From the NCBI GenBank assembly GCA_037045145.1, contig JBAOIA010000012.1:235210-299209 (forward strand): a stretch of DNA of 64,000 bases, read 5' to 3'. This stretch comes from Bacteroidia bacterium (GTDB lineage: Bacteria; Bacteroidota; Bacteroidia; AKYH767-A; OLB10). The notes below the pieces were generated by a model, which worked only from the letters and a program-made list of their open reading frames with translations, searched no databases and had not been told where the DNA came from. Positions 26,479 to 43,403 of this stretch are shown in pieces (positions within the stretch are counted from its first letter, which is position 1; every line of letters begins with the position of its first letter). Position numbers and translations under genes: made by a program.

Positions 26479-26515
26479 CCCCGTACCTGCGAAGCTGTGC
26501 TTCGTGGGGTTTGTG
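26479..26515. repeat. REP-like hairpin, left arm of RAYT unit 1
   Basis: CCCCGTACCTGCGAAGCTGTGCTTCGTGGGGTTTGTG. A second related hairpin, GGAAGC-TGC-GCTTCC, follows at 26518-26532. Confidence 0.7.
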
Positions 26516-26545
26516 CAGGGAAGCTGCGCTTCCGATAAAAAACAC

Positions 26546-27076
26546 TTACATACTTAACACCTTAATCGGGCTGTTTTCGTTTGCGATGCTTAACCTCCAT
26601 AAATGCGGTTCATCAACAAAACCTGCTTCAACAGGATTACGATGTATGTAATCAACCTTTTGGTCTATGATGCGGTTAGAGTATAATTCAAATGCGTGAT
26701 TATCGTGTTGCCAAAACTGTTTTTCCTGTTTATGTGATGATAGTCTGCCATAAAACTTAAATTCTTTCATCAACCATTCGCGCCTGCTTTCCAGCATATT
26801 TTCTTCTATAGACTGCATTATCGTTTTAGCGGTAAAAGATTTCATATCACGCATTAAATCATTTAAAGTTCCTTCTTCTCTTGATGCAATTATGTGAACA
26901 TGGCTTGGCATGATGCAGTAGCAATATAGTTGCAGCCCTTTGTTTTTTTGGCAGTAAATAATACTGTCTGTAACTATATCCTGATACAATCGCCTTGTGA
27001 AAATATCAACCCAGCCAATGGTTGTAATTGTTACAAAATATAAACCGCCCGGAAAAGTTTTATAAACTTCAGACAT
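26546..27076 (-). CDS. REP-associated tyrosine transposase (RAYT; IS200/IS605-like Y1 HUH transposase)
   Basis: HUH motif SHVHIIA and the catalytic-Tyr helix VDYIHRNPVEAGFV. The start is taken at MSEVYKTFPGGLYFVT. Confidence 0.8.
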   Translation of the reverse strand: MSEVYKTFPGGLYFVTITTIGWVDIFTRRLYQDIVTDSIIYCQKNKGLQLYCYCIMPSHVHIIASREEGTLNDLMRDMKSFTAKTIMQSIEENMLESRREWLMKEFKFYGRLSSHKQEKQFWQHDNHAFELYSNRIIDQKVDYIHRNPVEAGFVDEPHLWRLSIANENSPIKVLSM

Positions 27077-27144
27077 TTGTTGTTTGCATATATGCAAAAA
27101 TGATAATTTTTAGATCAGTATATGATTGAAGTAAAACTTCCAAA

Positions 27145-27181
27145 CACAAAACCCACGAAGCACAGCTTCGCGGGTACGGGG
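27145..27181. repeat. REP-like hairpin, right arm of RAYT unit 1
   Basis: CACAAAACCCACGAAGCACAGCTTCGCGGGTACGGGG, the inverted copy of 26479-26515. Confidence 0.7.
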
Positions 27182-27212
27182 ATGCTGCGCTTATGAATTT
27201 GAGTAATTTCAT
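27182..27212 (-). pseudogene. 31-nt stump of a sixth paralog (start codon plus about 10 codons, MKLLKFISAA..)
   Basis: The segment 27182-27240 parallels the junctions at 30238-30295 and 31795-31852. It has the same 12-nt spacer, the same upstream CTD end, and ATGCTGCGCTTAT identical to the ATG-proximal arm of the SP-2 palindrome. The gene stops abruptly at REP1-R. Confidence 0.7.
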
Positions 27213-27225
27213 TTTACAACAAAAG

Positions 27226-28809
27226 TTATTCAACTATAAATTTCTTTACCAATCTTTCTTTTTCTGTTTGCAACGAAACAATGTACATGCCTTTTGCAAG
27301 TGCGCTGCAATTAATATCCTGTGTAAAATAACCTCCTGCGCTACCCCCAACCCCTGAAGGGGAGAGCCTACGCGCAGTGTTATAAATTAGATTGCCTGTA
27401 ACATCGTATATGGTTAGCGTTATACTTTTTCCTTTTAAATGCTGCGCATTTACAAACAGCTTTTGCCATGAAGCTATGTAGGTAACAAACAACTCCGCTC
27501 CCTTTGCTGATGTTGCAAGAGGTGCTATACCTGTTAGTGTATCACACGCACTACCTGCTATTGCTCCAAGTTCATAATTCGGATTATTAGGCAAGCCCAA
27601 GTATGTTCTCTTACCGCCAAGATAAAAACTGTAAGGCTGAAAATCACATGCCGAACCTAAACTATCAGGCTGGTTTATTACTGACAAGTTCATATTGTAC
27701 ATATTATAGACAGTATCAGGGTATGGGTAAGGAAACATAATTCCATTGTTGTACCAACATGCCAAATAAATTTTGCCATCGGATGCAAGTTTTAAACCAC
27801 CCCCAGCATAATTTGGAAAAGTCAACGCCCACAACGTATCCTTAGTAAGCGAAATATTCGCTGCGTTTAAATCATATTGAAATAAGTAAGTAGTATTTGG
27901 AGATGCGGTTACATACAACTTACTTTCATCGGGTGAAAATTCACAACTCCATGTAAAAGGATAGGGTGGCATACCCGCATCAGGCTCTATAGTAACGGGA
28001 TTATTTAACAATCCTGTGCAACGGTCAAAATCATAAAGTTCTATTAAACCCAACCAATTGGTAAATACCAATTTTTCGCCATCAGGCGAAAAATTGGTAT
28101 GCGCTCCTCCTGTTCTGTTTTGCGAACCAACGGACTGAACGGATAAATTCTGAATTCCGTTAGGAGTTATTAAATAGCTGTACCAATCGTTATTTGAACT
28201 AAATGTGAGTGCATCTGATTTTCTGAATAATAACCACCAATCTCTTCCGTTGCCATGCTTAACAGCATTTAAGCAATCCACTTGTTCAAAGCTTTGCAGT
28301 TGAACATTTTTAACTGTTACAGCACCCAAGCCGTTATTCAATCGCATATCTATTACGCTATAAACAATACCAAATGTATCGGTAATACTTATTGAGAAAA
28401 GGTAATATGTGCTGTCATTTGCAGGATTTGGAATTATAACCAATTCCTGATACCACAACCTGCCTACAATAGAATCCCCATTAAGCATTATATCATGATT
28501 TCTATCAAAAACAAAAGTTGCCATCTCTGTATTAGAAGCATATGCACGCATAGTAGCCGCATAAAACAACAGTTGTCCATTACTATCCGCAATGCTTACA
28601 CAACTGCCTCTTCCGTCAACAGAAGAAGAAAAAGTTACAGGTATTCCGCTTGAAAAATCAATACCAGCACTATCACCAAAACACCATACCGAGTTCCTAT
28701 TTTGTGAAACGCAAAAAAAATGGCAGCAACAAAGTGTTGCTGCCATTATTAAACATTTTAAACTATTTAATAACCACAAACCGTTTTTTAAAATATTCGC
28801 CTGCTTCAT
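27226..28809 (-). CDS. paralog A: T9SS-sorted secreted beta-propeller-like protein (SP-1 signal, CTD variant alpha)
   Basis: Shares the family motifs SVWCFGDS, GRGSC.SI.D..G.LLFY, KHGNGRDWW, FSPDGEKL, YDFDRCTG and LKLA.DGKIYL. The C-terminal about 90 aa has a Por_Secre_tail-like pattern (ITLTIYD..G...INCSALAKGMYIVSLQTEKERLVKKFIVE). The start is uncertain: 28809 overlaps gene B, and the conserved ATG is at 28746. Confidence 0.75.
   Translation of the reverse strand: MKQANILKNGLWLLNSLKCLIMAATLCCCHFFCVSQNRNSVWCFGDSAGIDFSSGIPVTFSSSVDGRGSCVSIADSNGQLLFYAATMRAYASNTEMATFVFDRNHDIMLNGDSIVGRLWYQELVIIPNPANDSTYYLFSISITDTFGIVYSVIDMRLNNGLGAVTVKNVQLQSFEQVDCLNAVKHGNGRDWWLLFRKSDALTFSSNNDWYSYLITPNGIQNLSVQSVGSQNRTGGAHTNFSPDGEKLVFTNWLGLIELYDFDRCTGLLNNPVTIEPDAGMPPYPFTWSCEFSPDESKLYVTASPNTTYLFQYDLNAANISLTKDTLWALTFPNYAGGGLKLASDGKIYLACWYNNGIMFPYPYPDTVYNMYNMNLSVINQPDSLGSACDFQPYSFYLGGKRTYLGLPNNPNYELGAIAGSACDTLTGIAPLATSAKGAELFVTYIASWQKLFVNAQHLKGKSITLTIYDVTGNLIYNTARRLSPSGVGGSAGGYFTQDINCSALAKGMYIVSLQTEKERLVKKFIVE
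28720..28746. repeat. SP-1 perfect palindrome (12-bp arms, 3-nt loop) containing the start ATG of paralog A and followed by U8 on the mRNA
   Basis: ATGGCAGCAACA-AAG-TGTTGCTGCCAT on the plus strand, with A8 at 28713-20 whose last A (28720) is the first stem base, i.e. 7 A beyond the stem. Confidence 0.85.
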
Positions 28810-30268
28810 TCTTTATTCTAATATTATACACTCCGTCAGAAAGCGAAGATACATCAATGCTGCCATTTGTGCCATTAGTTTGTTTTTCTATTATCAGTCG
28901 CCCGTAAATGTCGTAAACAACCAGTTCATTTTTTGCATCGCTTAATCCTGATATAAACAAGATGTTGTTTACAGGGTTGGGGTAAATGTTTATTAAGTTC
29001 CCCTTTGGGGGATTTAGGGGGCTTATGCCTGTCAACGTATCACACGCACTTCCCGCTAACGCCCCCAACTCATAATCCGGATTATTAGGCAAACCTCCGT
29101 AAGTTCTTTTGCCACCAAGATAAAATGAGTAGGGTTGTAAATCACATGCTGAGCCTAAGCTGTTGGGAGAGTTAATGGTGCTTAAATACATATTGGTGTT
29201 ATTATACATAGTGTCGTTATAAGGATAATATTGATAATAACTTGTTGCTAAATAAATTTTACCGTCAGGAGCAAGCTTTAAATCGTCCATAGTTTCATTA
29301 AAATGAGTTTGTCGCAATGTATCAACACTTGCAGCAATATTGGTTGCCGTTAAATCAAACTGATACAGCCGCGATGTATCGGTTGATTGTATGGGTATGC
29401 CGGATATATAAAGTAAATTATCGTCAGGCGAAAAACATGCGCCCCAATAACAACCAAATGGAGCTTGCGTGGGTTCAGGATAAATGGTTTGCAAATTACT
29501 TAATTGCCCTGTGCATCTGTCAAAGTCATACAATTCCAATAAGCCAACCAAGGTATAATATACCATTTTATTGCCATTATTTGAAAATTGAATTCTGCCA
29601 AACCCATGATTAGTTGCAAACCCAATATTTTGCGGCATGGAATCGGAAACACCCGCTGGCGAAATCAAATATTTGTAAAAAGTGTTGTTAATATTATTCC
29701 ACCTCCGGTTAATAATCCACCAGTCTCTTCCGTTGCCATGTTTAATGGCTTTTAATCCGTCAGCGCTTTTGTAATTATGTAACTGCACATTTTTTTGAAT
29801 CACTTCGCCTAATCCGCCATTGGCGCTCATATCAACTATGGAATAATATAAACCTAACTGACTACTACCCGTTACGCCAATGGAAAAAACATAATATTGA
29901 TTGTTGTTAGATGGATTATCAATAATTAAAACTTCATGGTACCAGGCTTGCATAACAATAGAATCACCATTTTGCATGATTTGATGTTGTTTATTCCAAA
30001 TTTCACCATTTTGAAATGGCGGACCTCCGGCAGCCCATGTATCTGTATTATAACCTGCATAAAATAACAGGCTTCCGGCACTGTCGGCAATGCTTGCACA
30101 ACTGCCGCGCGATTTTACCATGCTGCTGCCTGTTATGATATTGGCAGTATCACTAAAATCAACCAGCGCACTGTCGCCAAAGCACCACACGCTGCCCTGC
30201 TTTTGCGCATTTGCAAAATAAGCGCAGCATATAAGAAATGCTGCGCTTATGTATCGGAGTGATTTCAT
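28763..30268 (-). CDS. paralog B: T9SS-sorted beta-propeller-like protein (SP-2 signal, CTD variant beta)
   Basis: 501 aa. The CTD reads IYPNPVNNILFISGL...VVYDIYGRL...IDVSSLSDGVYNIRIKNEAGEYFKKRFVVIK. Confidence 0.8.
   Translation of the reverse strand: MKSLRYISAAFLICCAYFANAQKQGSVWCFGDSALVDFSDTANIITGSSMVKSRGSCASIADSAGSLLFYAGYNTDTWAAGGPPFQNGEIWNKQHQIMQNGDSIVMQAWYHEVLIIDNPSNNNQYYVFSIGVTGSSQLGLYYSIVDMSANGGLGEVIQKNVQLHNYKSADGLKAIKHGNGRDWWIINRRWNNINNTFYKYLISPAGVSDSMPQNIGFATNHGFGRIQFSNNGNKMVYYTLVGLLELYDFDRCTGQLSNLQTIYPEPTQAPFGCYWGACFSPDDNLLYISGIPIQSTDTSRLYQFDLTATNIAASVDTLRQTHFNETMDDLKLAPDGKIYLATSYYQYYPYNDTMYNNTNMYLSTINSPNSLGSACDLQPYSFYLGGKRTYGGLPNNPDYELGALAGSACDTLTGISPLNPPKGNLINIYPNPVNNILFISGLSDAKNELVVYDIYGRLIIEKQTNGTNGSIDVSSLSDGVYNIRIKNEAGEYFKKRFVVIK
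30218..30250. repeat. SP-2 perfect palindrome (13-bp arms, 7-nt loop) inside the signal-peptide codons of paralog B
   Basis: ATAAGCGCAGCAT-ATAAGAA-ATGCTGCGCTTAT. It encodes ISAAFLICCAY on the minus strand. Confidence 0.85.
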
Positions 30269-30280
30269 TTAAAACAAAAG

Positions 30281-31825
30281 TTATTCAACAACAAATTTAT
30301 TTACCAATCTTTCTTTTTCTGTTTGCAACGAAACAATGTACATGCCTTTTGCAAGTGCGCTGCAATTAATATCCTGTGTAAAATAACCTCCTGCGCTACC
30401 CCCAACCCCTGAAGGGGAGAGCGCACGCGCAGTGTTGTAAAATAACTTGCCTGAAATATCGTATATGGTTAGTGTTATATTTTTTCCTTTTAAATGCTGT
30501 GCATTTACAAACAACCTTTGCCATGATGCCATGTAGGTAACAAACAACTCCGCTCTCTTTGCTGATGTTGCAAGAGGTGCTATGCCCGTTAATGTATCGC
30601 ATGGGCTGCCTGATATTGCAGGCAGTGTATAATCAGGATTATTAGGTAAACCTCCGTAAGTTCTTTTGCCACCAAGATAAAATGAGTAGGGTTGTAAATC
30701 ACATGCTGAGCCTAAGCTGTTGGGAGAGTTAATGGTGCTTAAATACATATTGGTATTATTATACATAGTGTCCTTATAAGGATAATATTGATAATAGCTT
30801 GTTGCTAAATAAATTTTACCGTCAGGAGCTAATTTAAGAAATCCCATAGATGCATTAAAATGAGTTTGCCATAATGTATCGGCACTGGCAGCTATATTGG
30901 TTGCCGTTAAATCAAGCTGATACAGCCGCGATGTGTCGGTTGATTGTATGGGTATGCCGGATATATAAAGTAAATTATCGTCAGGCGAAAAACATGCTCC
31001 CCAATACCAGCGTAAGGGAGCCTGTGTGAGTTCAGGGTAAATGGTTTGTAAATTACTTAATTGCCCTGTGCATCTGTCAAAGTCATACAATTCCAATAAG
31101 CCAACCAAGGTATAATATACCATTTTATTGCCATTATTTGAAAATTGAATTCTGCCAAACCCATGATTAGTTGCAAACCCAATATTTTGCGGCATGGAAT
31201 CGGAAACACCCGCTGGCGAAATCAAATATTTGTAAAAAGTGTTGTTAATATTATTCCACCTCCGGTTAATAATCCACCAGTCTCTTCCGTTGCCATGCTT
31301 AATGGCTGTTAATCCGTCAGCGCTTTTGTAATTATGCAACTGTACATTTTTTTGAATCACTTCGCCTAATCCGCCATTAGCGCTCATATCAACTATGGAA
31401 TAATATAAACCTAACTGACTACTACCCGTTACGCCAATGGAAAAAACATAATATTGATTGTTGTTAGATGGATTATCAATAATTAAAACTTCATGGTACC
31501 AGGCTTGCATAACAATAGAATCACCATTTTGCATGATTTGATGTTGTTTATTCCAAATTTCACCATTTTGAAATGGCGGACCTCCGGCAGCCCATGTATC
31601 TGTATTATAACCTGCATAAAATAACAGGCTTCCGGCACTGTCGGCAATGCTTGCACAACTGCCGCGCGATTTTACCATGCTGCTGCCTGTTATGATATTG
31701 GCAGTATCACTAAAATCAACCAGCGCACTGTCGCCAAAGCACCACACGCTGCCTTGCTTTTGTGCATTTGCAAAATAAGCGCAGCATAGTAAAAATGCTG
31801 CGCTTATGTATCGGAGTGATTTCAT
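30281..31825 (-). CDS. paralog C: chimera of a B-like body and a D-like tail (SP-2 signal, CTD variant alpha)
   Basis: 514 aa. It is near-identical to B over the N-terminal region at a 1557-nt offset. The C-terminal about 130 aa are near-identical to D. Confidence 0.8.
   Translation of the reverse strand: MKSLRYISAAFLLCCAYFANAQKQGSVWCFGDSALVDFSDTANIITGSSMVKSRGSCASIADSAGSLLFYAGYNTDTWAAGGPPFQNGEIWNKQHQIMQNGDSIVMQAWYHEVLIIDNPSNNNQYYVFSIGVTGSSQLGLYYSIVDMSANGGLGEVIQKNVQLHNYKSADGLTAIKHGNGRDWWIINRRWNNINNTFYKYLISPAGVSDSMPQNIGFATNHGFGRIQFSNNGNKMVYYTLVGLLELYDFDRCTGQLSNLQTIYPELTQAPLRWYWGACFSPDDNLLYISGIPIQSTDTSRLYQLDLTATNIAASADTLWQTHFNASMGFLKLAPDGKIYLATSYYQYYPYKDTMYNNTNMYLSTINSPNSLGSACDLQPYSFYLGGKRTYGGLPNNPDYTLPAISGSPCDTLTGIAPLATSAKRAELFVTYMASWQRLFVNAQHLKGKNITLTIYDISGKLFYNTARALSPSGVGGSAGGYFTQDINCSALAKGMYIVSLQTEKERLVNKFVVE
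31775..31807. repeat. SP-2 perfect palindrome in paralog C
   Basis: ATAAGCGCAGCAT-AGTAAAA-ATGCTGCGCTTAT. The arms are identical to the B copy and the loop differs at 3 of 7 positions. Confidence 0.85.
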
Positions 31826-31837
31826 TTAAAACAAAAG

Positions 31838-33409
31838 TTATTCAACAACAAATTTATTTACCAATCTTTCTTTTTCTGTTTGCAAAGAAACAATATACAT
31901 GCCTTTTGCAAGTGCGCTGCAATTAATATCCTGTGTAAAATAACCGCCTGCGCTACCCCCAACCCCTGAAGGGGAGAGCACTCGCGCAGTGTTATAAATT
32001 AGCTTGCCTGTAACATCATATAGGGTTAGTGTTATATTTTTCCCTTTTAAATGCTGCGCATTTACAAACAATTTTTGCCATGATGCCATGTAGGTAACAA
32101 ACAACTCCGCTCCCTTTGCTGATGTTGCAAGAGGTGCTATACCCGTTAATGTATCACAGGGACTGCCTGATATTGCAGGCAGTGTATAATCAGGATTATT
32201 GGGTAAACCAAGATATGTTCTTTTGCCTCCGAGATAAAAACTGTAAGGCTGAAAATCACATGCAATTCCTAAACTATCAGGTTGGTTTATTACTGACAAG
32301 TTCATATTGTACATATTATAAACAGTATCCTGATATGGATAAGGAAATTGAACTCCATTATAATATATGCTGGCTAAATAAATTTTATTGTCTGGAGCTA
32401 ATTTTAATCCGCCTCCAGTATAAAGAGGATAGTTGGTTGTCCAAAGTGTATTTTTACTTTGTGAGATATTTGACGCATTTAAGTCATATTGAAATAGGTA
32501 AGTAGTATCATCTGCTGTTGTTACATATAATTTGCTTGCATCGGGTGAGAATTCACAACTCCAAGTATATGGCACTGATGGCAATGCTTCCGGTTCAATG
32601 GTAACAGGATTGCTCAATAATCCTGAACAACGGTCAAAATCATATAGCTCAACCAACCCAATCAAATTGGTAAATACCAATTTTTCGCCTGATGGCGAAA
32701 AATTGGTATATCCTGAGTTGGTTTTGTTTAATGAACCTATTGACTGAATGGAAAAATTCTGAACGCTGACAGGTGTAATTAAATAAGAATACCAGTCATT
32801 GTTGCCATTTGATAAAGAACCTGCTTTTCTGAATAATACCCACCAGTCCCTTCCATTGCCATGCTTAACGGCATTTAAGCAATCAACCTGCTCAAAGCTT
32901 TGCAGTTGAACATTTTTAACCGTCACAGCCCCCAAGCCGTTATTCAGCCGCATATCAATTATGCTGTAATATAAGCCATATATGCTCGTTACTCCAATAG
33001 AAAATAAGTAATAGGTGCTGTCATTAGCCGGATTGGGTACTATTACCAATTCCTGATACCAACCTCTGCCAACAATATTATTTCCGTTTTGCATTACCTG
33101 ATGAGTTGTATCAAAAACTAATGTGGTGTTGCCACTTATTGTGGCTCTTGTTTCGGCATAGAAAAGAAGTTTACCATTTTCATTTGCAATTGATGCGCAT
33201 GAACCTCTGGTATCTAATCCACATGAGCCAACTATAATATTTGAAGTATCACTGAAGTCAATTAAAGCGCTGTCGCCAAAGCACCACACCGAATTACGGT
33301 TTTGCGCATAGGAAAAGAAATGGCAGCAACAGAGTGTTGCTGCCATTAATGAAAATTTTAAATTATTTAATAACCACAAACCGTTTTTTAAAATATTCGC
33401 CTGCTTCAT
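31838..33409 (-). CDS. paralog D: T9SS-sorted beta-propeller-like protein (SP-1 signal, CTD variant alpha)
   Basis: 523 aa with the same family motifs. The start is uncertain: 33409 overlaps E, and the conserved ATG is at 33346. Confidence 0.75.
   Translation of the reverse strand: MKQANILKNGLWLLNNLKFSLMAATLCCCHFFSYAQNRNSVWCFGDSALIDFSDTSNIIVGSCGLDTRGSCASIANENGKLLFYAETRATISGNTTLVFDTTHQVMQNGNNIVGRGWYQELVIVPNPANDSTYYLFSIGVTSIYGLYYSIIDMRLNNGLGAVTVKNVQLQSFEQVDCLNAVKHGNGRDWWVLFRKAGSLSNGNNDWYSYLITPVSVQNFSIQSIGSLNKTNSGYTNFSPSGEKLVFTNLIGLVELYDFDRCSGLLSNPVTIEPEALPSVPYTWSCEFSPDASKLYVTTADDTTYLFQYDLNASNISQSKNTLWTTNYPLYTGGGLKLAPDNKIYLASIYYNGVQFPYPYQDTVYNMYNMNLSVINQPDSLGIACDFQPYSFYLGGKRTYLGLPNNPDYTLPAISGSPCDTLTGIAPLATSAKGAELFVTYMASWQKLFVNAQHLKGKNITLTLYDVTGKLIYNTARVLSPSGVGGSAGGYFTQDINCSALAKGMYIVSLQTEKERLVNKFVVE
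33320..33346. repeat. SP-1 perfect palindrome containing the conserved ATG of paralog D
   Basis: ATGGCAGCAACA-GAG-TGTTGCTGCCAT. It is followed on the mRNA by UUCUUUUCC. Confidence 0.85.
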
Positions 33410-34865
33410 TCTTTATTCTAAGGTTATACACTCCGTCAGAAAGCGAAGATACATCAATGCTGCCCGCTGCAGAAGCATTCTTCTTTAATAATAATCTGCC
33501 GTAAATATCATACACCTCTATTTCATTTTTGCCTTCAGGCATTCCGCTAACATACAATGTGCTGTTGGCGGGGTTGGGAAATATCCTCACCCCACCCCTC
33601 TCCAAAGGAGAGGGAGCTATGCCTGTAAGTGTATCACACACACTACCCGCTACCGCCTCCAACTCATAATCAGGATTATTAGGTAAACCAAGATATGTTC
33701 TTTTGCCTCCGAGATAAAAACTGTACGGCTGAAAATCACATGCTGCGCCTAAGCTATCAGGTTGGTTAATTACTGATAAGTTCATATTGTACATGTTGTA
33801 AACACTATCCCTGTAAGGATAATAATTAGAGGCATTATAATACACATTACTCAAATAGATTTTGTTATCAGGAGCCAACTTTAATCCTCCTATTGCATAA
33901 GGAAATAAATTAAATGACCATAGAGTATCTTTGCTTCCGGGAATATTGGGTGCGTTTAAATCGTATTGAAATAAATATGAAGTAGTTTGATTGGTGGTAA
34001 CATATAACTTACTTTCATCAGGAGAAAACTCACAACTCCAAATAAATGGATAAGGAGGGTTACCTAAATCAGGTTCTATAGTAACGGGATTATTTAACAA
34101 TCCTGTGCAACGATCAAAATCATAAACTTCAATCAAACCCAACCAATTGGTAAATACCAATTTTTCGCCATCAGGCGAAAAATTGGTATGCGCTCCTCCT
34201 GTTCTGTTTTGCGAACCAACGGACTGAACGGATAAATTCTGAATTCCGTTAGGAGTTATTAAATAGCTGTACCAATCGTTATTTGAACTAAATGTGAGTG
34301 CATCTGATTTTCTGAATATTAGCCACCAATCTCTTCCGTTACCATGTTTAACGGCATTTAAGCAATCCACTTGTTCAAAGCTTTGCAGTTGTATATTCTT
34401 AGCAGTAACTGCTCCTAATCCACCATTCTGTTTCATATCTATGATGCTGTAAACAAGTCCGTTATTACCAGTGACATTTATTGAAAAAAGATAATATACA
34501 CTGTCGTTGGCAGGATTAGGAACAATTACCAATTCCTGATACCAACCTTCTCCAACAATAGAATCTCCATCTTGCATTACTGATCCTGTTGAATTAAAAA
34601 CAAAGGTTGAATTATCAATACTTATGGCATACTTGTACATTGTTGCTGCATAAAAAAGTAAATTCCCGTTATTGTCTGAAATGCTGACACAGCTTCCCCG
34701 ACTATCCATTCCTGATTGAAAAGTAACAGGTAATCCCGAACCAAAATCTATTCCCGCACTATCGCCAAAGCACCATACGCTATTTCTATTTTGCGCATAA
34801 GAAAAAAAATGGCAGCAACAAAATGTTGCTGCCATTAGTAAGCATTTTAAATTAAGTGATTTCAA
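33363..34865 (-). CDS. paralog E: T9SS-sorted beta-propeller-like protein (SP-1 signal, CTD variant beta)
   Basis: 500 aa. The ORF track uses a TTG start at 34865, and the conserved ATG is at 34835. Confidence 0.75.
   Translation of the reverse strand: MKSLNLKCLLMAATFCCCHFFSYAQNRNSVWCFGDSAGIDFGSGLPVTFQSGMDSRGSCVSISDNNGNLLFYAATMYKYAISIDNSTFVFNSTGSVMQDGDSIVGEGWYQELVIVPNPANDSVYYLFSINVTGNNGLVYSIIDMKQNGGLGAVTAKNIQLQSFEQVDCLNAVKHGNGRDWWLIFRKSDALTFSSNNDWYSYLITPNGIQNLSVQSVGSQNRTGGAHTNFSPDGEKLVFTNWLGLIEVYDFDRCTGLLNNPVTIEPDLGNPPYPFIWSCEFSPDESKLYVTTNQTTSYLFQYDLNAPNIPGSKDTLWSFNLFPYAIGGLKLAPDNKIYLSNVYYNASNYYPYRDSVYNMYNMNLSVINQPDSLGAACDFQPYSFYLGGKRTYLGLPNNPDYELEAVAGSVCDTLTGIAPSPLERGGVRIFPNPANSTLYVSGMPEGKNEIEVYDIYGRLLLKKNASAAGSIDVSSLSDGVYNLRIKNEAGEYFKKRFVVIK
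34809..34835. repeat. SP-1 perfect palindrome containing the conserved ATG of paralog E
   Basis: ATGGCAGCAACA-AAA-TGTTGCTGCCAT. It is followed on the mRNA by U7CUU (A8 at 34802-34809, whose last A is the first stem base). Confidence 0.85.
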
Positions 34866-34866
34866 A

Positions 34867-37800
34867 TTATTTAATTACAATAAATCTCGTTCTAAAATAC
34901 TCATCTGTCTCATTTCGTATCCTCAGATTATAAATACCTTCTGCCAGCGAAGATACGTCAATTACGCCACTGCTGCTGTTATTTTGCTTTGTAAATAATA
35001 ACCTGCCATAAAGGTCGTAAACCTGCATTTCATTTTTACCATCACTCATTCCTGTTACCAACAGCAAGCTGTTGGCTGGGTTAGGTTGTATGCGTACCTT
35101 ATCAGCCGGCAGTGTTTTTTCAGGCAATTCATTCTGAGTATGACTGCCACCCTGCCGCAATGCGGGCAATTCAGGAGAGTAATATTCCTTACCGAGCAAG
35201 GCTGCCGCACTGTAAACGCTCTTGCCCGCTATGAGCCAGTGCTGCGCCAGCAGGCTTTCCAACGCTGTGGTGTCTGTTGCATCAAGCGTATCACCTGCTG
35301 CCAGCTTGCCGATAATAAGGCTGTTGATGAGCTTATAGTTGGCTTCCATATCATTGCTTTCGGTAATGCTGCTGTTAATGGTTGCAGCAGCAGCAATGTC
35401 ATCGGCTTTAATAGCCTGCTTTACGGAGTCAAACTTGCCTATGTTGGCATTGAGCATGACATTGTAAAATGCGCGGAATGATGAGTCAGCCGCGCTGCCT
35501 GTGGTGAGCAGTGTGGTGTCAGCGCTGAGCCGTTTGAACAGGGTTTCTTTAGCAAGGTATTTAGCCTCATCTGCATAACTATCGTACACAGCAGAATCAC
35601 CCACTACGGGACCAAATTCTTTATCTCTGTCAATATCGACATTGGTAAATAACGCGGTTGCACAATCAGTATTTGAACTTGCTTCATTATCATCCGCTAA
35701 AATAACATTCCCATTATAAGGATCAGGAGTAAATAAATTATTTACGTCTGTTTCATCTCCTTGAAAATACCATTTAAAAGGTGATGCTACCTGCAAGTAT
35801 CCATCCACTTTCATTAAAGCATTGTTTGAAGTAATCCATTGATTATCCCATGCGTTATTTGCAGTTCCCTGAGGTGAAAATTGTGCGTTTTCATACCAAA
35901 TACCTTTGTTATAATCAGTCATCACATTATTTTTCAGCCGCGTGGTTTGGCAATCGCCCTCAAAGCGCAGGGCATAGCCGAGGCGTGTAATGCCGTTGCC
36001 GCATATATTCAGGTTTTGAGAATTGTCGGCAGCAATGCCGCGTATTTTATCAGCATTATAAGCAACAACGCTGTTGTTATAAATGTCGTTCGCTTTAATA
36101 ACAGCATCGTTGCAGTCCTGTATAAATATGCCTGAATACATTTGGCTTGTTTCTAATCCGTCATCAGCCTCCATAGCAATGGTGTTGGGCAAAAGGCTGC
36201 TGCCGTCCGTTCCAACGCTTATGCCCGGTGTGTTGTTGGCATATATTCCTATTCGCGCTCCGGTTATGGAGTTGTCTGTAATAGTTACTGCGCTGTTTGC
36301 GCCCTGCTCATATAATACCCTTATGCCATAATCGCCAGTTGCATAAATGTTATTATGGTCAACGGAAACGGCATTGCCTGTGGTGGCTGTGCTGTTTATA
36401 TAAACGGCAGAAGTAGGAACAGTTAAATCGGCAGGTGTTTTTACATGCAAATCGTTACCGGTAATCTGAATAGTGTTGCTGCCGCATTTTTCAACCAAAA
36501 TGTTGTTTTTGCTGTTGCTCATGGCATTCTGGTTGCATTTAACAAAGCTGCCTGCAAGCTTTCCGTTGCAGTTAAACATCCTGTACCCTGCTTCGGCACA
36601 GTTGTTTATTGTGTTTTGTTCCATCCTCAACTGCTCAGTTACATTGCCAATGCCATACCTCATGTTTTCAAATGTGTTGTGCAAAATAATTTTATCATCA
36701 TTGGCATTGGCGGCTTCGCCCAATATTAAAGCTCCGTAGCCGGTGGGCGAGGTTATAAGCGGATAAGCCAGTAACCGCGCCTGTGACACATCGGGTACAC
36801 GCCCCGGTGCATCTTTAAAATAATTGTACCGGATGTTATAGTCAACGGGGTTTACTAATCTTATACCATAGTCCATGTCAGAAAAAACATTTTGCTCATT
36901 TGCTGCGCCAATGGTTAAATCGGATGGCGCGAGGAGCAGAATATGGTTAAACGATTTGTCGCCATATTCATAAACCGCTCTTCCGCTGCACCTGAAAATG
37001 CAATTATGTATTTGCATATTGCTGTAATCCGTTACGCCCGCCCCTAATTCAACTATGCCGTAAAAATTATGGTCGAATAAGGTATTGGATAAATTAATAT
37101 TTGTAATGGATGAGGAATTGCCGTTAATTGCAATAGCTGCTTCGGCATCTTCCATATCGGAATTGGTTATTTCCAGCTCGGAAGTGCCGTCAGCAAGCAC
37201 AATGCCTTTCCATAACACATTACAACCGAAAAAACGGCTGTCTTGTACATCTAGCTTTTTGCCTGCATCAACATATATTCCCACTCCCTGGCTGCAAATT
37301 ACTGTTTTGTTGTTAAATAAATTAAAATCGGCATCTACCGTAAAATCATCCGTAAGATATACCACATCAGGAGTTATAACGCTGATTGCGCTTGCAATGT
37401 TATTTCCACTATTAATAGTAAATGTGCTGCTGACGCACAATGTTGAAGATAATGTGCCGCACACATCGGGCTGCGGCTGCAAAGCAAGGTTTTTGTCTTC
37501 GGCAATAACTATTTGGTCAACTAACACGTTTCCGTTAATGCTGTTAATGGATAATGTATATTCCTGATTATCGAGTTGGCTCAATAAAATAGGAGATAAA
37601 CTGTTTGGCAAAAACCGATACCAATTCCAGTCACTGCTGCTAATACAGCTTAACGTACAAACGGGAGTACCGTCCAATTTAATTTCAAGCTGGCTGCCTG
37701 AACCGGCATCTTTGGCTTTTATCCAAACATAATAATCGGTATCATCAACTCTGGGGTGAAATTTATATTCAACAGGGGCACTTCCTGCTGCAAAAGAAAT

Positions 37801-39540
37801 ATAAGTGGTAAAGTTTCTATAATCACCAGAAGATGTTCCACCCGGTACAGATGTAACACGGGTTACATTTGCAGGTGCAGAAACATTATCCCACACCTCG
37901 GCTTCAAACCAAAAATCTTTGCTCCAGCGGTCAGGGTGCTTATATTCATGCCATGCATCAAGCTGGTAGAATACAGGAGGATTAACAGAAGCATCGAAAA
38001 TGTAAGTGCTGCCCTGCCTGCGAACGTTAAACTGCAAGTCGTAAGTGGATGTGCTTCCGCCTGCATTATCAGCCAAATGTATTTTGGCTGCTTTTTCCAA
38101 AGGAGCATTGCCTTTTACATTGGAGTAAGGTTGAACGGTACCGGTGATGACGTATTTTTCTATAGCATTATCTTTTCTGGAAAGCACCAACACATCAGGT
38201 GAACTAGATTTAAAGGCGTACATCATATCGGGCGCAGCAGAATTACCCGGCTCTTGTAATCTGTCACCTTCAAGCAAATGTCCATCTATAATTAAATCAG
38301 CAAATCGGTCCGCTATTGCATGTGCGTAAGCAGGTGTTGCAGCTTGCCAAACATAACCTTTAGGTTCAACAACATCTGGAAGTGCAAAAACATGAAAGAA
38401 ATCAGATCCAAGAACAGAGACTGCCTTTAACAATCCAAGCCATTGCCCGGGTCTTAAATTATCTTCTTCATTATGAGCCCATCCGGGTGCAACAAATGGC
38501 GCATTTATATAATCCCCGTTATTTAATTCTTCTTTTTTGCTTCTGGTCAGCCATAAAAATCCGTGATCTGCAGAGCGAGATTCTCTAAGCCAGTCTTCTG
38601 GTCTTCTTGGATAAAAGTCAGGCGTAGCAAGCCTGACATTTACGGGCGTTGAACCGTATTGTACAACCGATTGGGTTTCTCTTAATTCATTATAGCGGTA
38701 TCTTGCTTGATCGTAATTGATTCCGTTATTAGTTACTAACTTCCAATGACCATCAACAGCATAATTTAGAAATATGGTTCCATCAGAAACAAGTTTTGAA
38801 ATATTCATAAAATTGTCCCTATAATCATTGTCAAGTTCTTTTCCCTTTGTTGCCATAAATTCTTCCCATTTTAATGGTGTATCAGCATTTCCAGATAAAA
38901 ATGTAATGTAAGCAGATGACAATGGAGTAGAAGATAATGTATTTCTTAAATTATAAATTGCTTTATGAGAAACCTCATTATTTTCAGAAATTACTTTGAC
39001 TTTTGCAGAAATTCCGTTTAAAATAGTTTGTAAATAATCATTCTGCAATAATCCATCTGTTGCATACACATCTCTTTTGTTTGAAAAAATATTTCCTGTT
39101 CCTGTTCCAAATGCCGGGCTGTAATTCCAAAAATGTGTACCACTGTTGTTTCCTTCAAAATTATAAAACATACTTGACTTATAAAGATAAAAATCCTCAT
39201 CACTAACGGTAACAGTACCAAAATTTGTAAAGCTTGTAGCGTTTTGTTCCCTGATCCAGGAGTTGGTAATTCCAGGAGGCACTTTATTAACAAGAGATGA
39301 TGGCAATGAATGTCCAAGATCACTTGTACTATAACTTAATTGAGCACGATTTGTTATAATTCCTATTTCATCAGTTGAATTAAAATTTGTTGCTGCATAA
39401 TTAATATATTGTTGATTTTCGGGATCAAGATATGTTCTCGTGTTTTCACAAATATTGAATAAATAATACCAATTTTTATACAGTTCGAGCTGTACATTTA
39501 AGGATCTTGTTCCATCATGTTCTCCAAGATAGTTACTCCC
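34867..39540 (-). pseudogene. C-terminal fragment (1,557 codons) of a giant T9SS-sorted protein split by RAYT unit 2
   Basis: The frame is open from 39540 down to the stop at 34867. The ORF track reports only 34867..39306 from an internal TTG. A TAG contributed by the inserted element (39541-43) lies immediately upstream. The fragment contains PbH1-type beta-helix repeats, a CBM-like segment and the CTD IQPNPANSLLLVTG...IDVSSLAEGIYNLRIRNETDEYFRTRFIVIK. Confidence 0.7.
39505..39540. repeat. 36-bp direct repeat, left copy (flanks RAYT unit 2)
   Basis: TCTTGTTCCATCATGTTCTCCAAGATAGTTACTCCC, identical to 40192-40227. Confidence 0.9.
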
Positions 39541-39569
39541 CTACTGGCGCAAGTCTTCAGACTTGTGCC
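39541..39569. repeat. REP-like hairpin, left arm of RAYT unit 2
   Basis: GGCGCAAGTC-TTCA-GACTTGTGCC (one G-T pair). Confidence 0.7.
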
Positions 39570-39601
39570 ATCCTGTCATTAAAAATTGCACATTTGCAAC
39601 C

Positions 39602-40153
39602 ATGAGTTCCAAGTATAAGTTTCACACTCCTGATGCCATATATTTTGTTACTTTTTCGGTTATAAACTGGATTGATGTTTTTACAAGAAACGGTTATAAA
39701 GATATTTTAATTGACAGTATAAAACATTGCCAAAAAGAAAAAGGCTTAGTGGTTCATGCTTGGGTTATTATGACCAATCATGTACACATGATTATTTCTA
39801 AAAACGGAACATGTGTGCTGCCTGATATAATGCGCGACCTTAAAAAATTTACAGCCTATAAAATTACAGGGGCAATTATGGAAAATTCTCAGGAAAGCAG
39901 GCGCGAATGGATGTTTAATCTTTTTAAACGGGCTGGTGAAAGAAATTCCAACAATACAAACTGGCAGTTTTGGCAACAGGATAATCATCCTGTTGAATTA
40001 ACTGATGCAAGAATGCAAGAACAAAAATTAAATTACATACATGAAAATCCTGTGCGGGCAGGATTTGTTTATAACCCTGAAGACTATGTGTACAGTAGCG
40101 CAACGGATTATTGCGGCAGCAAAGGGCTTATTGACTTAGTGCTGCTTGAATGA
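39602..40153 (+). CDS. REP-associated tyrosine transposase (RAYT) paralog
   Basis: MSSKYKFHTPDAIYFVT..., HUH motif NHVHMII, Tyr helix LNYIHENPVRAGFV. It is about half identical to the RAYT at 26546 by eye. The ATG at 39602 is preferred because the TTG at 39563 lies inside the hairpin. Confidence 0.8.
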   Translation: MSSKYKFHTPDAIYFVTFSVINWIDVFTRNGYKDILIDSIKHCQKEKGLVVHAWVIMTNHVHMIISKNGTCVLPDIMRDLKKFTAYKITGAIMENSQESRREWMFNLFKRAGERNSNNTNWQFWQQDNHPVELTDARMQEQKLNYIHENPVRAGFVYNPEDYVYSSATDYCGSKGLIDLVLLE

Positions 40154-40159
40154 TAGTAG

Positions 40160-40191
40160 GGCGCAAGTCTGAAGACTTGCGCCAGTGGGGG
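40160..40191. repeat. REP-like hairpin, right arm of RAYT unit 2
   Basis: GGCGCAAGTC-TGAA-GACTTGCGCC, a perfect 10-bp stem. Confidence 0.7.
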
Positions 40192-40227
40192 TCTTGTTCC
40201 ATCATGTTCTCCAAGATAGTTACTCCC
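40192..40227. repeat. 36-bp direct repeat, right copy
   Basis: Identical to 39505-39540. Confidence 0.9.
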
Positions 40228-42989: not shown

Positions 42990-43403
42990 TTAATTTGAAA
43001 CAAATGAATAAACGCTGCTCCATACGCCCGATTCTTTAATGCGTACTTCTCCAAAATATGCACTCTGTTGGTCATAATCGCCAATGTCAACGGCAATAAT
43101 ATTTCCGCTGCGCGAATAGGAAAAACCCGGAGGAAGACTTGCCGGTGTATCGTAAACAAACGATTCATTTATCATGTCATATAAATTCCAGTCGGTTCCT
43201 AATTTAATTTCAATATTTGTTATGTTTACTGTGTCGGGAATTTCAATGTAGTAAGTTCCATGCATTATGCCTACTGTTGGAGTGGTTCTCATGCTCACAA
43301 AGGCATCGGATGGTTGTGCATTTGCTGCTGCCGCCATCAGCAGAAGCAGAGCAGTGAACAAGCTAACGCAAGCTGCACTGCATGTTTGTTTGAATGATTT
43401 CAT
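42990..43403 (-). CDS. small secreted hypothetical protein, first gene of the accessory block
   Basis: 137 aa with a signal peptide ending AANAQ. It ends 17 nt upstream of the giant-gene start. Confidence 0.5.
   Translation of the reverse strand: MKSFKQTCSAACVSLFTALLLLMAAAANAQPSDAFVSMRTTPTVGIMHGTYYIEIPDTVNITNIEIKLGTDWNLYDMINESFVYDTPASLPPGFSYSRSGNIIAVDIGDYDQQSAYFGEVRIKESGVWSSVYSFVSN

Follow-up and report, generated by a model that had tools for sequence, protein, structure and literature searches.

A perfect palindrome in the signal-peptide codons of tandem T9SS-cargo paralogs as one of a set of candidate sense-strand RNA hairpins at gene junctions

In E. coli, a terminator located 30 bp after the start codon, within the first 100 bp of the ORF, is efficient, and its efficiency also varies with its distance from the upstream stop codon (PMC4824070). 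Inverted repeats in the same species are concentrated directly past stop codons and in the zone 25-60 bp beyond start codons (PMC6060812). The hairpins described here lie in and around an array of T9SS-cargo paralogs in a 64,000-nt stretch of DNA from a Bacteroidia bacterium, referred to as the window. They share with intrinsic terminators a GC-rich stem of 9-13 bp, a loop of 3-7 nt, a 3' tail that is U-rich to a varying degree, a tolerance of G·U pairs and a position on the coding strand shortly (7-36 nt) past a stop codon. Moreover, long perfect palindromes between A and T runs appear to be the usual terminators between genes in these genomes. In contrast to intrinsic terminators, both arms and the U-tract are translated here as the hydrophobic core of a signal peptide. 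Since the arms are translated, the encoded amino acids covary (Met-His, Ile-Tyr, Ser-Ala, Ala-Cys and Thr-Cys). In addition, the tail of the second signal-peptide type, SP-2, is only moderately U-rich, and the stems at the junctions are longer and more perfect than those of the terminators after terminal family genes.

Intercistronic REPs can stabilise upstream mRNA. Like REP/BIME elements, the family hairpins are short palindromes just past genes in co-directional clusters, with RAYT genes beside the array, and a REP hairpin has replaced half of one SP-2 hairpin, in the same place after paralog A. However, the family hairpins are coding, and their arms match perfectly where those of REPs do not; they have no conserved tetranucleotide on the 5' side, are not scattered over intergenic DNA and share no consensus with the RAYT-flanking REPs. 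The two REP types, REP1 and REP2, were unlike the SP-1 and SP-2 arms, and identity with a REP element was rejected. Quasi-palindromes are template-switch hotspots, and the perfect arms, together with an internal palindrome that has a flipped loop in one copy and has been deleted between direct repeats in another, are reminiscent of them, but a mutational process alone does not predict junction dependence, strand-specific G·U pairs or a conserved U-rich tail.

The 13-7-13 geometry of SP-2 also recalls the loxP/FRT/dif-type cores, which have 11-13-bp inverted arms and a 6-8-bp spacer. As at tyrosine-recombinase and attC sites, the hairpins are found at the edges of co-oriented gene units, with diverse sequences and conserved symmetry. 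Nevertheless, related hairpins have loops of anywhere between 3 and 8 nt and their arms diverge through compensatory and G·U substitutions, and the combination of conserved arms, fixed spacer and cognate recombinase was not found. There was no recombinase gene among the scanned ORFs of the window; the neighbouring ORFs that were scanned gave Y1 RAYTs only, with no integrase or recombinase domain, and the family hairpins had no attC core motifs. The recombination-site reading was rejected, as the identity between paralogs B and C continues through the junction.

The SP-2 palindrome and its setting

The genes of paralogs B and C are on the minus strand (Table 1). As the first-pass annotation had reported, both carry a perfect palindrome, ATAAGCGCAGCAT-7 nt-ATGCTGCGCTTAT, with 13-nt arms, in the codons for ISAAFL(I/L)CCAY; the plus-strand loops are ATAAGAA in B and AGTAAAA in C. 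The U-rich run UAUUUUG that it placed after the right arm is present if the last three bases of the stem are counted with UUUGCAAA. If the tail is measured from the 9-bp GC core of the stem, it reads UUAUUUUG, and six of its eight positions are U. The predicted energy of the RNA hairpin was -20.4 kcal/mol for SP-2 (13-bp stem, 7-nt loop) and -19.8 kcal/mol for SP-1 (13-bp stem, 3-nt loop).

Table 1. Coordinates of the hairpins, genes and mobile-element features in the window
Feature	Position	Strand	Description
SP-2 hairpin of paralog B	30218..30250	-	13-bp perfect arms (30218-30230/30238-30250), 7-nt loop, mRNA-sense loop UUCUUAU; codes ISAAFLICCAY
SP-2 hairpin of paralog C	31775..31807	-	arms (31775-31787/31795-31807) as in B, mRNA-sense loop UUUUACU; codes ISAAFLLCCAY
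U-rich tail 3' of B hairpin	30210..30217	-	mRNA UUUGCAAA
U-rich tail 3' of C hairpin	31767..31774	-	identical to B tail
Stop codon of paralog C	30281..30283	-	B hairpin begins 30 nt downstream; B start codon 12 nt downstream
Stop codon of paralog D	31838..31840	-	C hairpin begins 30 nt downstream
Paralog B, 501 aa	28763..30268	-	SP-2 signal peptide, probable beta-propeller body, T9SS type A C-terminal sorting domain, end ..FVVIK
Paralog C, 514 aa	30281..31825	-	SP-2 signal peptide, T9SS sorting domain, end ..FVVE
SP-1 hairpin of paralog A	28719..28747	-	13/3/13, AATGGCAGCAACA..TGTTGCTGCCATT then UUUUUUU; begins 15 nt past B stop; terminator-like in consensus scan
SP-1 hairpin of paralog D	33319..33347	-	begins 15 nt past E stop; terminator-like in consensus scan
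SP-1 hairpin of paralog E	34808..34836	-	begins 30 nt past stop of 1479-aa upstream gene; terminator-like in consensus scan
Internal perfect palindrome of paralog A	28065..28100	-	16/4/16; codes TNFSPDGEKLV
Same internal palindrome, paralog D	32674..32709	-	loop exact reverse complement of A/E loop, PDG to PSG
Same internal palindrome, paralog E	34154..34189	-	
Remnant of sixth SP-2 5' end	27182..27213	-	ATG 27213-27211, peptide MKLLKFISAA, first hairpin arm only (27182-27194)
REP1 copy	27152..27181	-	CCCCGTACCCGCGAAGCTGTGCTTCGTGGG.., adjoins SP-2 remnant; its hairpin (27175-27151) terminator-like, now after paralog A
RAYT1, REP-associated tyrosine (Y1/HUH) transposase	26546..27097	-	NF047646, 100.2 bits (cut-off 80)
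Second REP1 copy, inverted	26479-26512		beside RAYT1
RAYT2	39563..40153	+	49% identical to RAYT1; own REP2 copies at 39538-39569 and 40160-40191

When B and C were compared at an offset of 1557 over positions 29500-30268 (769 nt), exactly 10 differences were found (29741, 29751, 29780, 29786, 29822, 30197, 30206, 30232, 30233 and 30235), in line with the earlier count by eye of about ten; three are in the SP-2 loop and none in the 26 arm positions. The divergence is concentrated in the loop to that extent (binomial P about 9e-5, if the changes are independent). However, the absence of arm substitutions is uninformative because only 0.34 were expected there. Both loop versions also occur at other loci, the B type in L017 and L081 and the C type in L085, and B and C therefore hold two pre-existing alleles. 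Fresh mutation in situ was ruled out on the same grounds, and the C loop was tested as an inversion of the B loop and is not one. The hairpin is kept in L017 but this is uninformative, as the whole region is ~90% identical. The earlier statement that the two signal-peptide types are unrelated was too strong, since the GCAGCA/TGCTGC core is common to both and paralog E joins an SP-2-like n-region (TTG AAA TCA CTT) to an SP-1 hairpin.

Within the window, the SP-2 arm is present only in B, in C and in what is left of a sixth SP-2 5' end. This remnant is interrupted exactly at the boundary between arm and loop by REP1 and RAYT1, and the same junction is present in L001. RAYT1 and RAYT2 bracket the array. 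L001 has lost the internal 16-bp palindrome through a deletion between direct repeats of 8 nt. Searches for the protein family gave only weak beta-propeller hints. When metagenomes were searched with residues 1-290 of B, the only two loci recovered were L080 and L081, and a protein search with the N-terminal 122 residues gave only 18 short fragments, three of which (L082, L083 and L085) yielded useful DNA. No Rfam family reached its gathering score; the best match was DapZ, on the SP-1 hairpins, at 32.6 bits against a threshold of 56.

Abundance, location and conservation of the hairpins

The SP-2 palindrome is non-random, far beyond chance. In the window, 8 hairpins have arms of 13 nt or more and 10 have arms of 11 nt or more; in 30 dinucleotide-preserving shuffles of the window the counts were 0.0 and 0.17, respectively. 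When synonymous codons were resampled with the codon usage of the window, the SP-2 peptide gave an arm of at least 13 nt with P = 1.3e-4, and the corresponding value for SP-1 was 1.9e-3. A scan over 910 kb of DNA of related uncultured Bacteroidota gave 44 perfect hairpins whose arms were 12 nt or longer, of which 19 fell within the 17.4 kb of 5' zones of the T9SS-cargo family. The density was thus 1.09 per kb in these zones and 0.028 per kb elsewhere, a 39-fold difference. Most of the remaining hairpins were intergenic perfect palindromes between A and T runs that look like bidirectional terminators. The first-pass annotation had asked whether such palindromes are common in unrelated genes; none was seen in the 5' region of any unrelated ORF in roughly 890 kb of flanking DNA.

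The presence of a hairpin depended on the gene upstream. Arms longer than 10 nt were found in 22 of the 86 family genes with a same-strand ORF ending no more than 150 nt upstream, and in 1 of the 24 genes without one; a local-structure z below -2 was found in 37/86 and 2/24, respectively. In the window, the distance from the upstream stop codon to the start of the hairpin is 15 or 30 nt, and in the relatives it is 1-36 nt; the position relative to the start codon runs from -51 to +62. The location follows the stop codon of the upstream gene and not the start codon of the next. At three loci, homologues of the SP-1 hairpin are found between genes and are not translated: L010 and L055 have AATGGCAACCACA/TGTGGTTGCCATT in the spacer, ahead of the ATG, and the L022 hairpin is likewise in the spacer. 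There is also a second class of hairpin, in which the end of the signal peptide is paired with the conserved QNRNxIW codons (L007, L025, L035, L044 and L061); it is located 40-55 nt from the upstream stop and has no U-tract. In family genes that are not followed by another member, the arms within 110 nt of the stop codon were at most 7 nt long in 88 of 91 cases. The energy z-score of the 3' end did not differ significantly between junction and terminal genes (4/16 vs 13/82).

The covariation check proposed earlier gave a positive result, clearly in one series and weakly in the other. In the SP-1 series (alignment A2), compensatory changes were present at 7 of 13 core pairs, a value that none of 500 shuffles reached, and 128 of the 130 core cells were paired. 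In the SP-2 series (alignment A3) there were two pairs with a compensatory change, one of them a U-A to A-U flip in L082. The non-Watson-Crick stem positions comprised about 11 G·U on the sense strand and one A·C. The pairs are thus kept by compensatory and G·U substitutions, as in a generic conserved structured RNA, and throughout the SP-1 series the U-rich tail is preserved, in coding and non-coding copies alike.

The earlier proposal of selection on nucleic-acid structure at the 5' end of every cassette was borne out in one respect: codon tuning, the 39-fold enrichment, the compensatory changes and deviations toward G·U indicate selection for pairing. The further step of tying the structure to the signal peptide, or to the cassette 5' end as such, was not supported, given the 1/24 against 22/86, the anchoring to the stop codon and the intergenic homologues. 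In sum, the hairpins are 1) non-random, 2) codon-tuned, 3) specific to junctions, 4) anchored to the stop codon, 5) conserved with compensatory and G·U changes and 6) intergenic in some relatives.

The terminator or attenuator reading and its rivals

In the reading that we favour, and that we consider somewhat more probable than not, the SP-2 palindrome belongs to a group of RNA hairpins that form on the sense strand at the junctions of co-directional T9SS-cargo genes and resemble an intrinsic terminator or attenuator; that the hairpins terminate or attenuate transcription is inferred from their sequence. Each hairpin consists of a GC-rich core (GCAGCA/UGCUGC) with A-U closing pairs and a U-rich stretch after it, an anatomy that suits an intrinsic (Rho-independent) terminator or attenuator or, equally, a hairpin that would stabilise the 3' end of the upstream message. 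The spacers in the array are only about 12 nt, or negative, and the hairpin consequently lies inside the signal-peptide codons of the next gene. The hydrophobic core is written in mutually reverse-complementary codon pairs (Ala GCA/Cys UGC, Ile AUA/Tyr UAU, Ser AGC/Ala GCU, Met AUG/His CAU and Thr ACA/Cys UGU), with the U-tract read as Phe codons.

Both SP-1 and SP-2 form a stem-loop shortly past a co-directional stop codon. In a consensus terminator scan, the three SP-1 hairpins, whose tails have 5-7 U in 8, were the top terminator-like matches on the coding strand. The scan did not call SP-2, and its tail qualifies only when the outer A-U pairs are included in the tract. A Bacteroidetes -7 motif (TAnnTTTG) lies 31 nt ahead of the start codons of B and C and was not found at the SP-1 junctions; a sigma-70 promoter scan is not applicable to Bacteroidota. 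Because the hairpin is within the first 70 nt of the downstream coding region, a terminator would attenuate that gene too and would cut its expression, so that read-through or antitermination would be needed. The QNRNxIW class without a U-tract, the short arms after terminal genes, the non-significant energy comparison of 3' ends and the internal palindrome also count against a terminator. The internal 16-bp palindrome of A, D and E is outside what the terminator model explains.

Three other explanations were weighed. One is amino-acid composition and codon bias: the Ala codon GCA, the most frequent one for Ala in the window (47%), is the reverse complement of the Cys codon UGC, so that Ala- and Cys-rich hydrophobic cores might pair by chance. 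For practical purposes this is refuted by the shuffled windows, none of which had 13-nt arms, by the resampling given the exact peptide (P = 1.3e-4), by the 39-fold enrichment, by the non-coding homologues and by the compensatory changes, and its probability is close to nil. Another, which we regard as rather improbable, is that early coding mRNA structure serves the downstream gene by tuning translation initiation or elongation of the secreted protein, for example through a pause for membrane targeting, an open start region or translational coupling to the upstream gene; this corresponds to the view of the first-pass annotation, in which the element belongs to the 5' end of every cassette. 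The hairpins are indeed in or beside family signal-peptide codons in many genomes, the start codon and first 18 nt of B and C are predicted to be unpaired with the SP-2 stem beginning at +19, one class pairs signal-peptide with mature N-terminal codons and lacks a U-tract, and the E. coli inverted repeats 25-60 bp after start codons (PMC6060812) are in a comparable position. However, first genes, which have no same-strand ORF end upstream, are nearly devoid of the hairpin (1/24 and 2/24), and unrelated ORFs in the flanking sequence (about 890 kb) did not show it at their 5' ends. The distance from the start codon also varies widely and the homologues in L010, L055 and L022 are wholly ahead of the ATG, making a fixed role in initiation or signal-peptide pausing unlikely.

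The remaining explanation, to which we assign a low but appreciable probability, operates on DNA: template switching between the arms (quasi-palindrome correction) would make the palindromes and keep them perfect, tolerated in a permissive hydrophobic core. The palindromes might also be hairpin or cruciform hotspots or targets of rearrangement, including by RAYT (HUH), and any selected function would be in the DNA. Template switching could mimic compensatory change and the arms are perfectly Watson-Crick across 13-18 nt. The sixth SP-2 5' end was split at the arm-loop boundary by REP and RAYT, at a junction conserved in L001, and the internal palindrome has its loop flipped to the exact reverse complement in D and was itself deleted in L001. 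RAYT genes are at both edges of the array, with homologues no more than 6 kb from family genes in L001, L005, L011, L020, L040 and L053, and the homology of L085 to B and C begins about 4 nt before the left arm. Homology endpoints fell at hairpins in 40 of 255 cases, against 6.7% expected, a figure confounded by the transition from variable to conserved coding sequence. A strand-symmetric DNA process nevertheless predicts equal numbers of G·U and A·C on the sense strand, while about 11 and one were observed, and it leaves aside both the need for an upstream same-strand gene end and the U-rich tail conserved on one strand. Moreover, the hairpin sequences vary between lineages, so that no site for a sequence-specific protein is conserved, the REP sequences of the RAYTs themselves differ from the family hairpins, and gene-conversion tracts cross the hairpins, the B-C tract being identical over the junction.

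Under the terminator or attenuator reading, a possible though more tentative step is that a terminator hairpin between genes was co-opted as the signal peptide's hydrophobic core, so that a single 29-33-nt sequence is both an RNA hairpin and an export signal and the peptide evolves by the rules of RNA pairing. The relatives L010, L055 and L022 have the homologous hairpin untranslated between stop and start, whereas in the lineage of the window the reading frame starts upstream of or inside the hairpin, with the AUG of MAAT in the left arm. It is also possible that each paralog is expressed only to the extent that its 5'-proximal terminator is read through, giving a graded or switchable array.

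Implications for T9SS-cargo arrays

Palindromes of this kind are fragile sites in DNA, as the REP/RAYT insertion, the loop flip and the deletion observed here illustrate. If the proposed reading is correct, the array would be a clear natural case of dual coding, in which one RNA stem and its U-tract are also translated as a functional signal peptide, and amino acids (Met/His, Ile/Tyr, Ser/Ala and Ala/Cys) would covary because their codons pair, without a reason at the protein level. Terminators could then hide in the first 70 nt of downstream genes, and unusual Cys-rich signal peptides may reflect constraints on the RNA. The extreme packing of genes in Bacteroidota T9SS-cargo arrays would push regulatory RNA structure into coding sequence, and this would offer a plausible route by which a new signal peptide arises from a terminator.

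Hairpins in the array and the family

The SP-2 palindrome, ATAAGCGCAGCAT-7 nt-ATGCTGCGCTTAT, was present in the signal-peptide codons of paralogs B (30218-30250) and C (31775-31807), two of the five tandem T9SS-cargo genes A-E, where it encoded ISAAFL(I/L)CCAY. Given the exact peptide and the codon usage of the window, the probability of 13-nt arms was 1.3 × 10^-4. The only codons able to pair were Ile ATA/Tyr TAT, Ser AGC/Ala GCT and Ala GCA/Cys TGC, indicating that codon choice in SP-2 is tuned. Paralogs B and C differed at exactly ten positions over 29500-30268 (offset 1557), three in the loop and none in the arms, much as the first-pass annotation had counted by eye. The unchanged arms, however, are uninformative, as 0.34 substitutions were expected. 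Nor was the loop divergence a local event. The B-type loop also occurred in L017 and L081, and the C-type in L085, all loci from other samples, the last with a different upstream gene and n-region; the difference is thus allelic and not the result of local hypermutation. The two signal-peptide hairpin types were not unrelated, as had been supposed, but had a GCAGCA/TGCTGC core in common, and in paralog E an SP-2-like n-region was joined to an SP-1 hairpin.

The window contained eight perfect hairpins whose arms reached at least 13 nt, and its dinucleotide shuffles gave none. The eight long perfect hairpins of the array fell into three classes, with two copies of SP-2, three of SP-1 (AATGGCAGCAACA-3 nt-TGTTGCTGCCATT) and three of an internal 16/4/16 palindrome; the remaining three in the 64-kb window were two A-run/T-run terminators and one REP. 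All five paralogs and the adjacent 1479-aa gene carried a T9SS type A C-terminal sorting domain; the bodies of A-E gave weak hints of a beta-propeller. The array was surrounded by housekeeping genes (among them FtsY, GuaA, ThrRS and peptidases), so the DNA is chromosomal.

The nearest relatives were uncultured Bacteroidota MAGs, many from activated sludge, in which the family is much enlarged (at least 579 matches, often multiple copies per contig). Among 128 members, taken from 79 related loci and the window, 29 had a perfect hairpin in the 120 nt that precede the conserved SVWCFGD motif, with arms of 11 to 18 nt and many different sequences. In 910 kb, hairpins whose arms reached at least 12 nt occurred at 1.09 per kb in these family 5' zones versus 0.028 per kb elsewhere. 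Most of those outside the 5' zones were perfect palindromes between genes, bordered by runs of A and T, and appear to serve these genomes as their usual terminators; no similar palindromes were seen at the 5' ends of unrelated ORFs in about 890 kb of flanking sequence.

Coordinates of the array genes, palindromes and REP/RAYT elements (window positions unless a related locus is named)
Feature	Position	Strand	Remark
Paralog A	27226-28809	minus	
Paralog B	28763-30268	minus	
Paralog C	30281-31825	minus	
Paralog D	31838-33409	minus	
Paralog E	33363-34865	minus	
1479-aa gene	34867-39306		upstream of the array
Internal palindrome, A	28065-28100		perfect 16/4/16
Internal palindrome, D	32674-32709		perfect 16/4/16
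Internal palindrome, E	34154-34189		perfect 16/4/16
RAYT1 unit and SP-2 remnant	26479-27213		unit bounded by inverted REP1 copies (CCCCGTACC...GGTACGGGG)
RAYT2 inverted REP2 copies	39538-39569, 40160-40191		
36-nt perfect direct repeat	39505-39540, 40192-40227		TCTTGTTCCATCATGTTCTCCAAGATAGTTACTCCC; flanks the RAYT2 unit
Second hairpin class	L007 7108, 8621; L025 6073; L035 6028; L044 1660; L061 4412, 6022; L037 347		

Position relative to the gene junction

The hairpin goes with the gene junction rather than with the signal peptide. Within the window, it started either 15 or 30 nt past the stop codon of the preceding gene in every case. Arms longer than 10 nt were found in 22 of the 86 members with an ORF on the same strand that ended no more than 150 nt upstream versus 1 of the 24 lacking one, and the lone exception had a sorting-domain remnant upstream. 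The folding-energy z-scores gave the same contrast (37/86 versus 2/24). Across the family, the hairpin began 1-36 nt from the upstream stop and anywhere from -51 to +62 relative to the start codon. It lay within the spacer when this was 40-55 nt long and within the signal-peptide codons when the spacer was 15 nt or less or the genes overlapped. The proposal of structural selection at the 5' end of every cassette held as regards selection, but not as regards an element specific to the signal peptide or the cassette 5' end.

The type of sorting domain foretold the hairpin of the next gene, ..VVIK* preceding SP-1 and ..VVE* preceding SP-2, including the remnant after A; the repeat unit of the array is thus out of register with the genes and consists of a 3' end, a junction and a 5' end. 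A tract of about 240 nt was common to A and E (95-100% identity) and one of about 1.2 kb to B and C. An SP-2 module was joined to an E-like body in L081 (728-910) and, in L085 (303-515), was accompanied by another upstream gene end and the n-region MKAIKY, indicating that the module recombines between paralogs and genomes. The sequence TAAATTTG (30299-30306 and 31856-31863, minus strand), located 31 nt upstream of the B and C start codons within the last codons of the preceding gene (VNKFVV), fits the Bacteroidetes -7 promoter consensus TAnnTTTG; the SP-1 junctions lacked the match, and in the remnant junction it was mutated.

Covariation and the sense strand

Untranslated homologues of SP-1 were found in L010 (AATGGCAACCACA aatt TGTGGTTGCCATT) and L055 (AACGGCAACCACA aatt TGTGGTTGCCGTT), 7 nt past the stop codon and about 14 nt ahead of the next ATG, and a similar untranslated hairpin occurred in L022. 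Translated variants were present in L001, L005, L011, L015 and L033. An alignment of ten hairpins, both translated and untranslated, had 128 of 130 core cells paired, and 7 of the 13 pairs had changed on both sides, a number reached in none of 500 shuffles (slid controls, 0-3 pairs). RNAalifold independently predicted the same 13 pairs. The covariation analysis in relatives that had been proposed thus revealed compensatory changes in the SP-1 hairpin, and the U-rich tail was retained in coding and non-coding copies. For SP-2 alone, the support was modest, the sample being six sequences of which four were near-identical: in L082, 11 of 13 positions still paired, the pair that closes the loop having switched from U-A to A-U; in L083, a single pair was compensated, another had become U·G and the outer part of the stem had decayed. 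Over all hairpins, the coding strand had about 11 G·U and one A·C among its non-Watson-Crick stem positions, besides a few mismatches of other kinds (binomial P ~0.003 against the equal numbers expected of a process that treats both DNA strands alike), which points to a sense-strand RNA.

A terminator-like hairpin and DNA-level events

On the coding strand, the junction hairpins combined a GC core and A-U closing pairs with a U-rich tail and a position just past a stop codon. An intrinsic terminator or attenuator is built in this way, and so is a hairpin by which the upstream message is stabilised at its 3' end. In a consensus scan, the three SP-1 hairpins were the top terminator-like sites on the coding strand; SP-2 conformed to the U-tract rule only with the tail (UUAUUUUG) taken to begin at the end of the GC core. 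In E. coli, the efficiency of a terminator varies with its distance from the upstream stop codon, and one placed 30 bp past a start codon lost only ~10% of its efficiency (PMC4824070); inverted repeats are enriched just past stops and 25-60 bp past starts (PMC6060812). The best explanation, to which we give somewhat better than even odds as a full mechanism, is a terminator-like hairpin at the junction whose sequence doubles as codons of the signal peptide. The signal-peptide core would be held to reverse-complementary codon pairs and the U-tract translated as Phe-Phe, which would give rise to unusual cores rich in Cys, among them MAATLCCCHFF and ISAAFLICCAYF. That the hairpin would terminate or attenuate transcription, and how the downstream gene would then be expressed, is an inference. 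That gene junctions carry a sense-strand RNA hairpin under selection can be put forward with greater confidence than the full mechanism.

Several observations do not fit a terminator. In a second class of hairpins, with perfect arms of 11-18 nt, the codons at the end of the signal peptide paired with those of the conserved mature N-terminus QNRNxIW (LLHSCF/QNRNAI, LLPLFC/QNRGNI, and HCCG/QNRN with Arg CGC). These hairpins lay 40-55 nt from the upstream stop without a U-tract, and the signal-peptide residues varied jointly with the Arg codon (AGG, AGA or CGC). Long hairpins were rare within 110 nt past the stop of terminal family genes, and an energy-based comparison involving these 3' ends was not significant. 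The internal palindrome, which encodes TNFSPxGEKLV on both strands and was missing from about 120 other family members, was neither at a junction nor U-tailed.

As DNA, the palindromes are fragile, as events at the internal palindrome and the remnant demonstrate. The loop in D was the exact reverse complement of that in A and E (PDG to PSG), and L001 (~7250) had lost the palindrome by a precise 36-nt deletion between 8-nt ACCAATTT direct repeats. Directly past paralog A, a sixth SP-2 start (MKLLKFISAA) retained only the first arm. A REP broke it precisely where arm and loop meet, and next to this REP came RAYT1, the gene for a REP-associated tyrosine transposase (score against NF047646, 100.2 bits; cut-off 80). 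An identical junction was found in L001. There (8130-8360), a REP2-like sequence cut off the same RAYT after 33 codons; REP/RAYT units have thus inserted into each other. At the opposite end of the array, RAYT2 with its own REPs divided a giant T9SS-cargo frame into 40108-43023 and 34867-39306, and its flanking repeat gives the unit the look of an insertion whose target duplication is unusually long. RAYT homologues were unusually frequent near family genes, occurring in six other loci that include L005, L011, L020 (two), L040 and L053. The REP/RAYT break, the loop flip and the deletion keep alive the alternative that the palindromes are DNA-level objects, but such events leave the dependence on the junction, the strand-specific G·U pattern and the conserved tail unexplained.

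The junction hairpin would represent a clean case of dual coding and a possible route from a terminator to a signal peptide.
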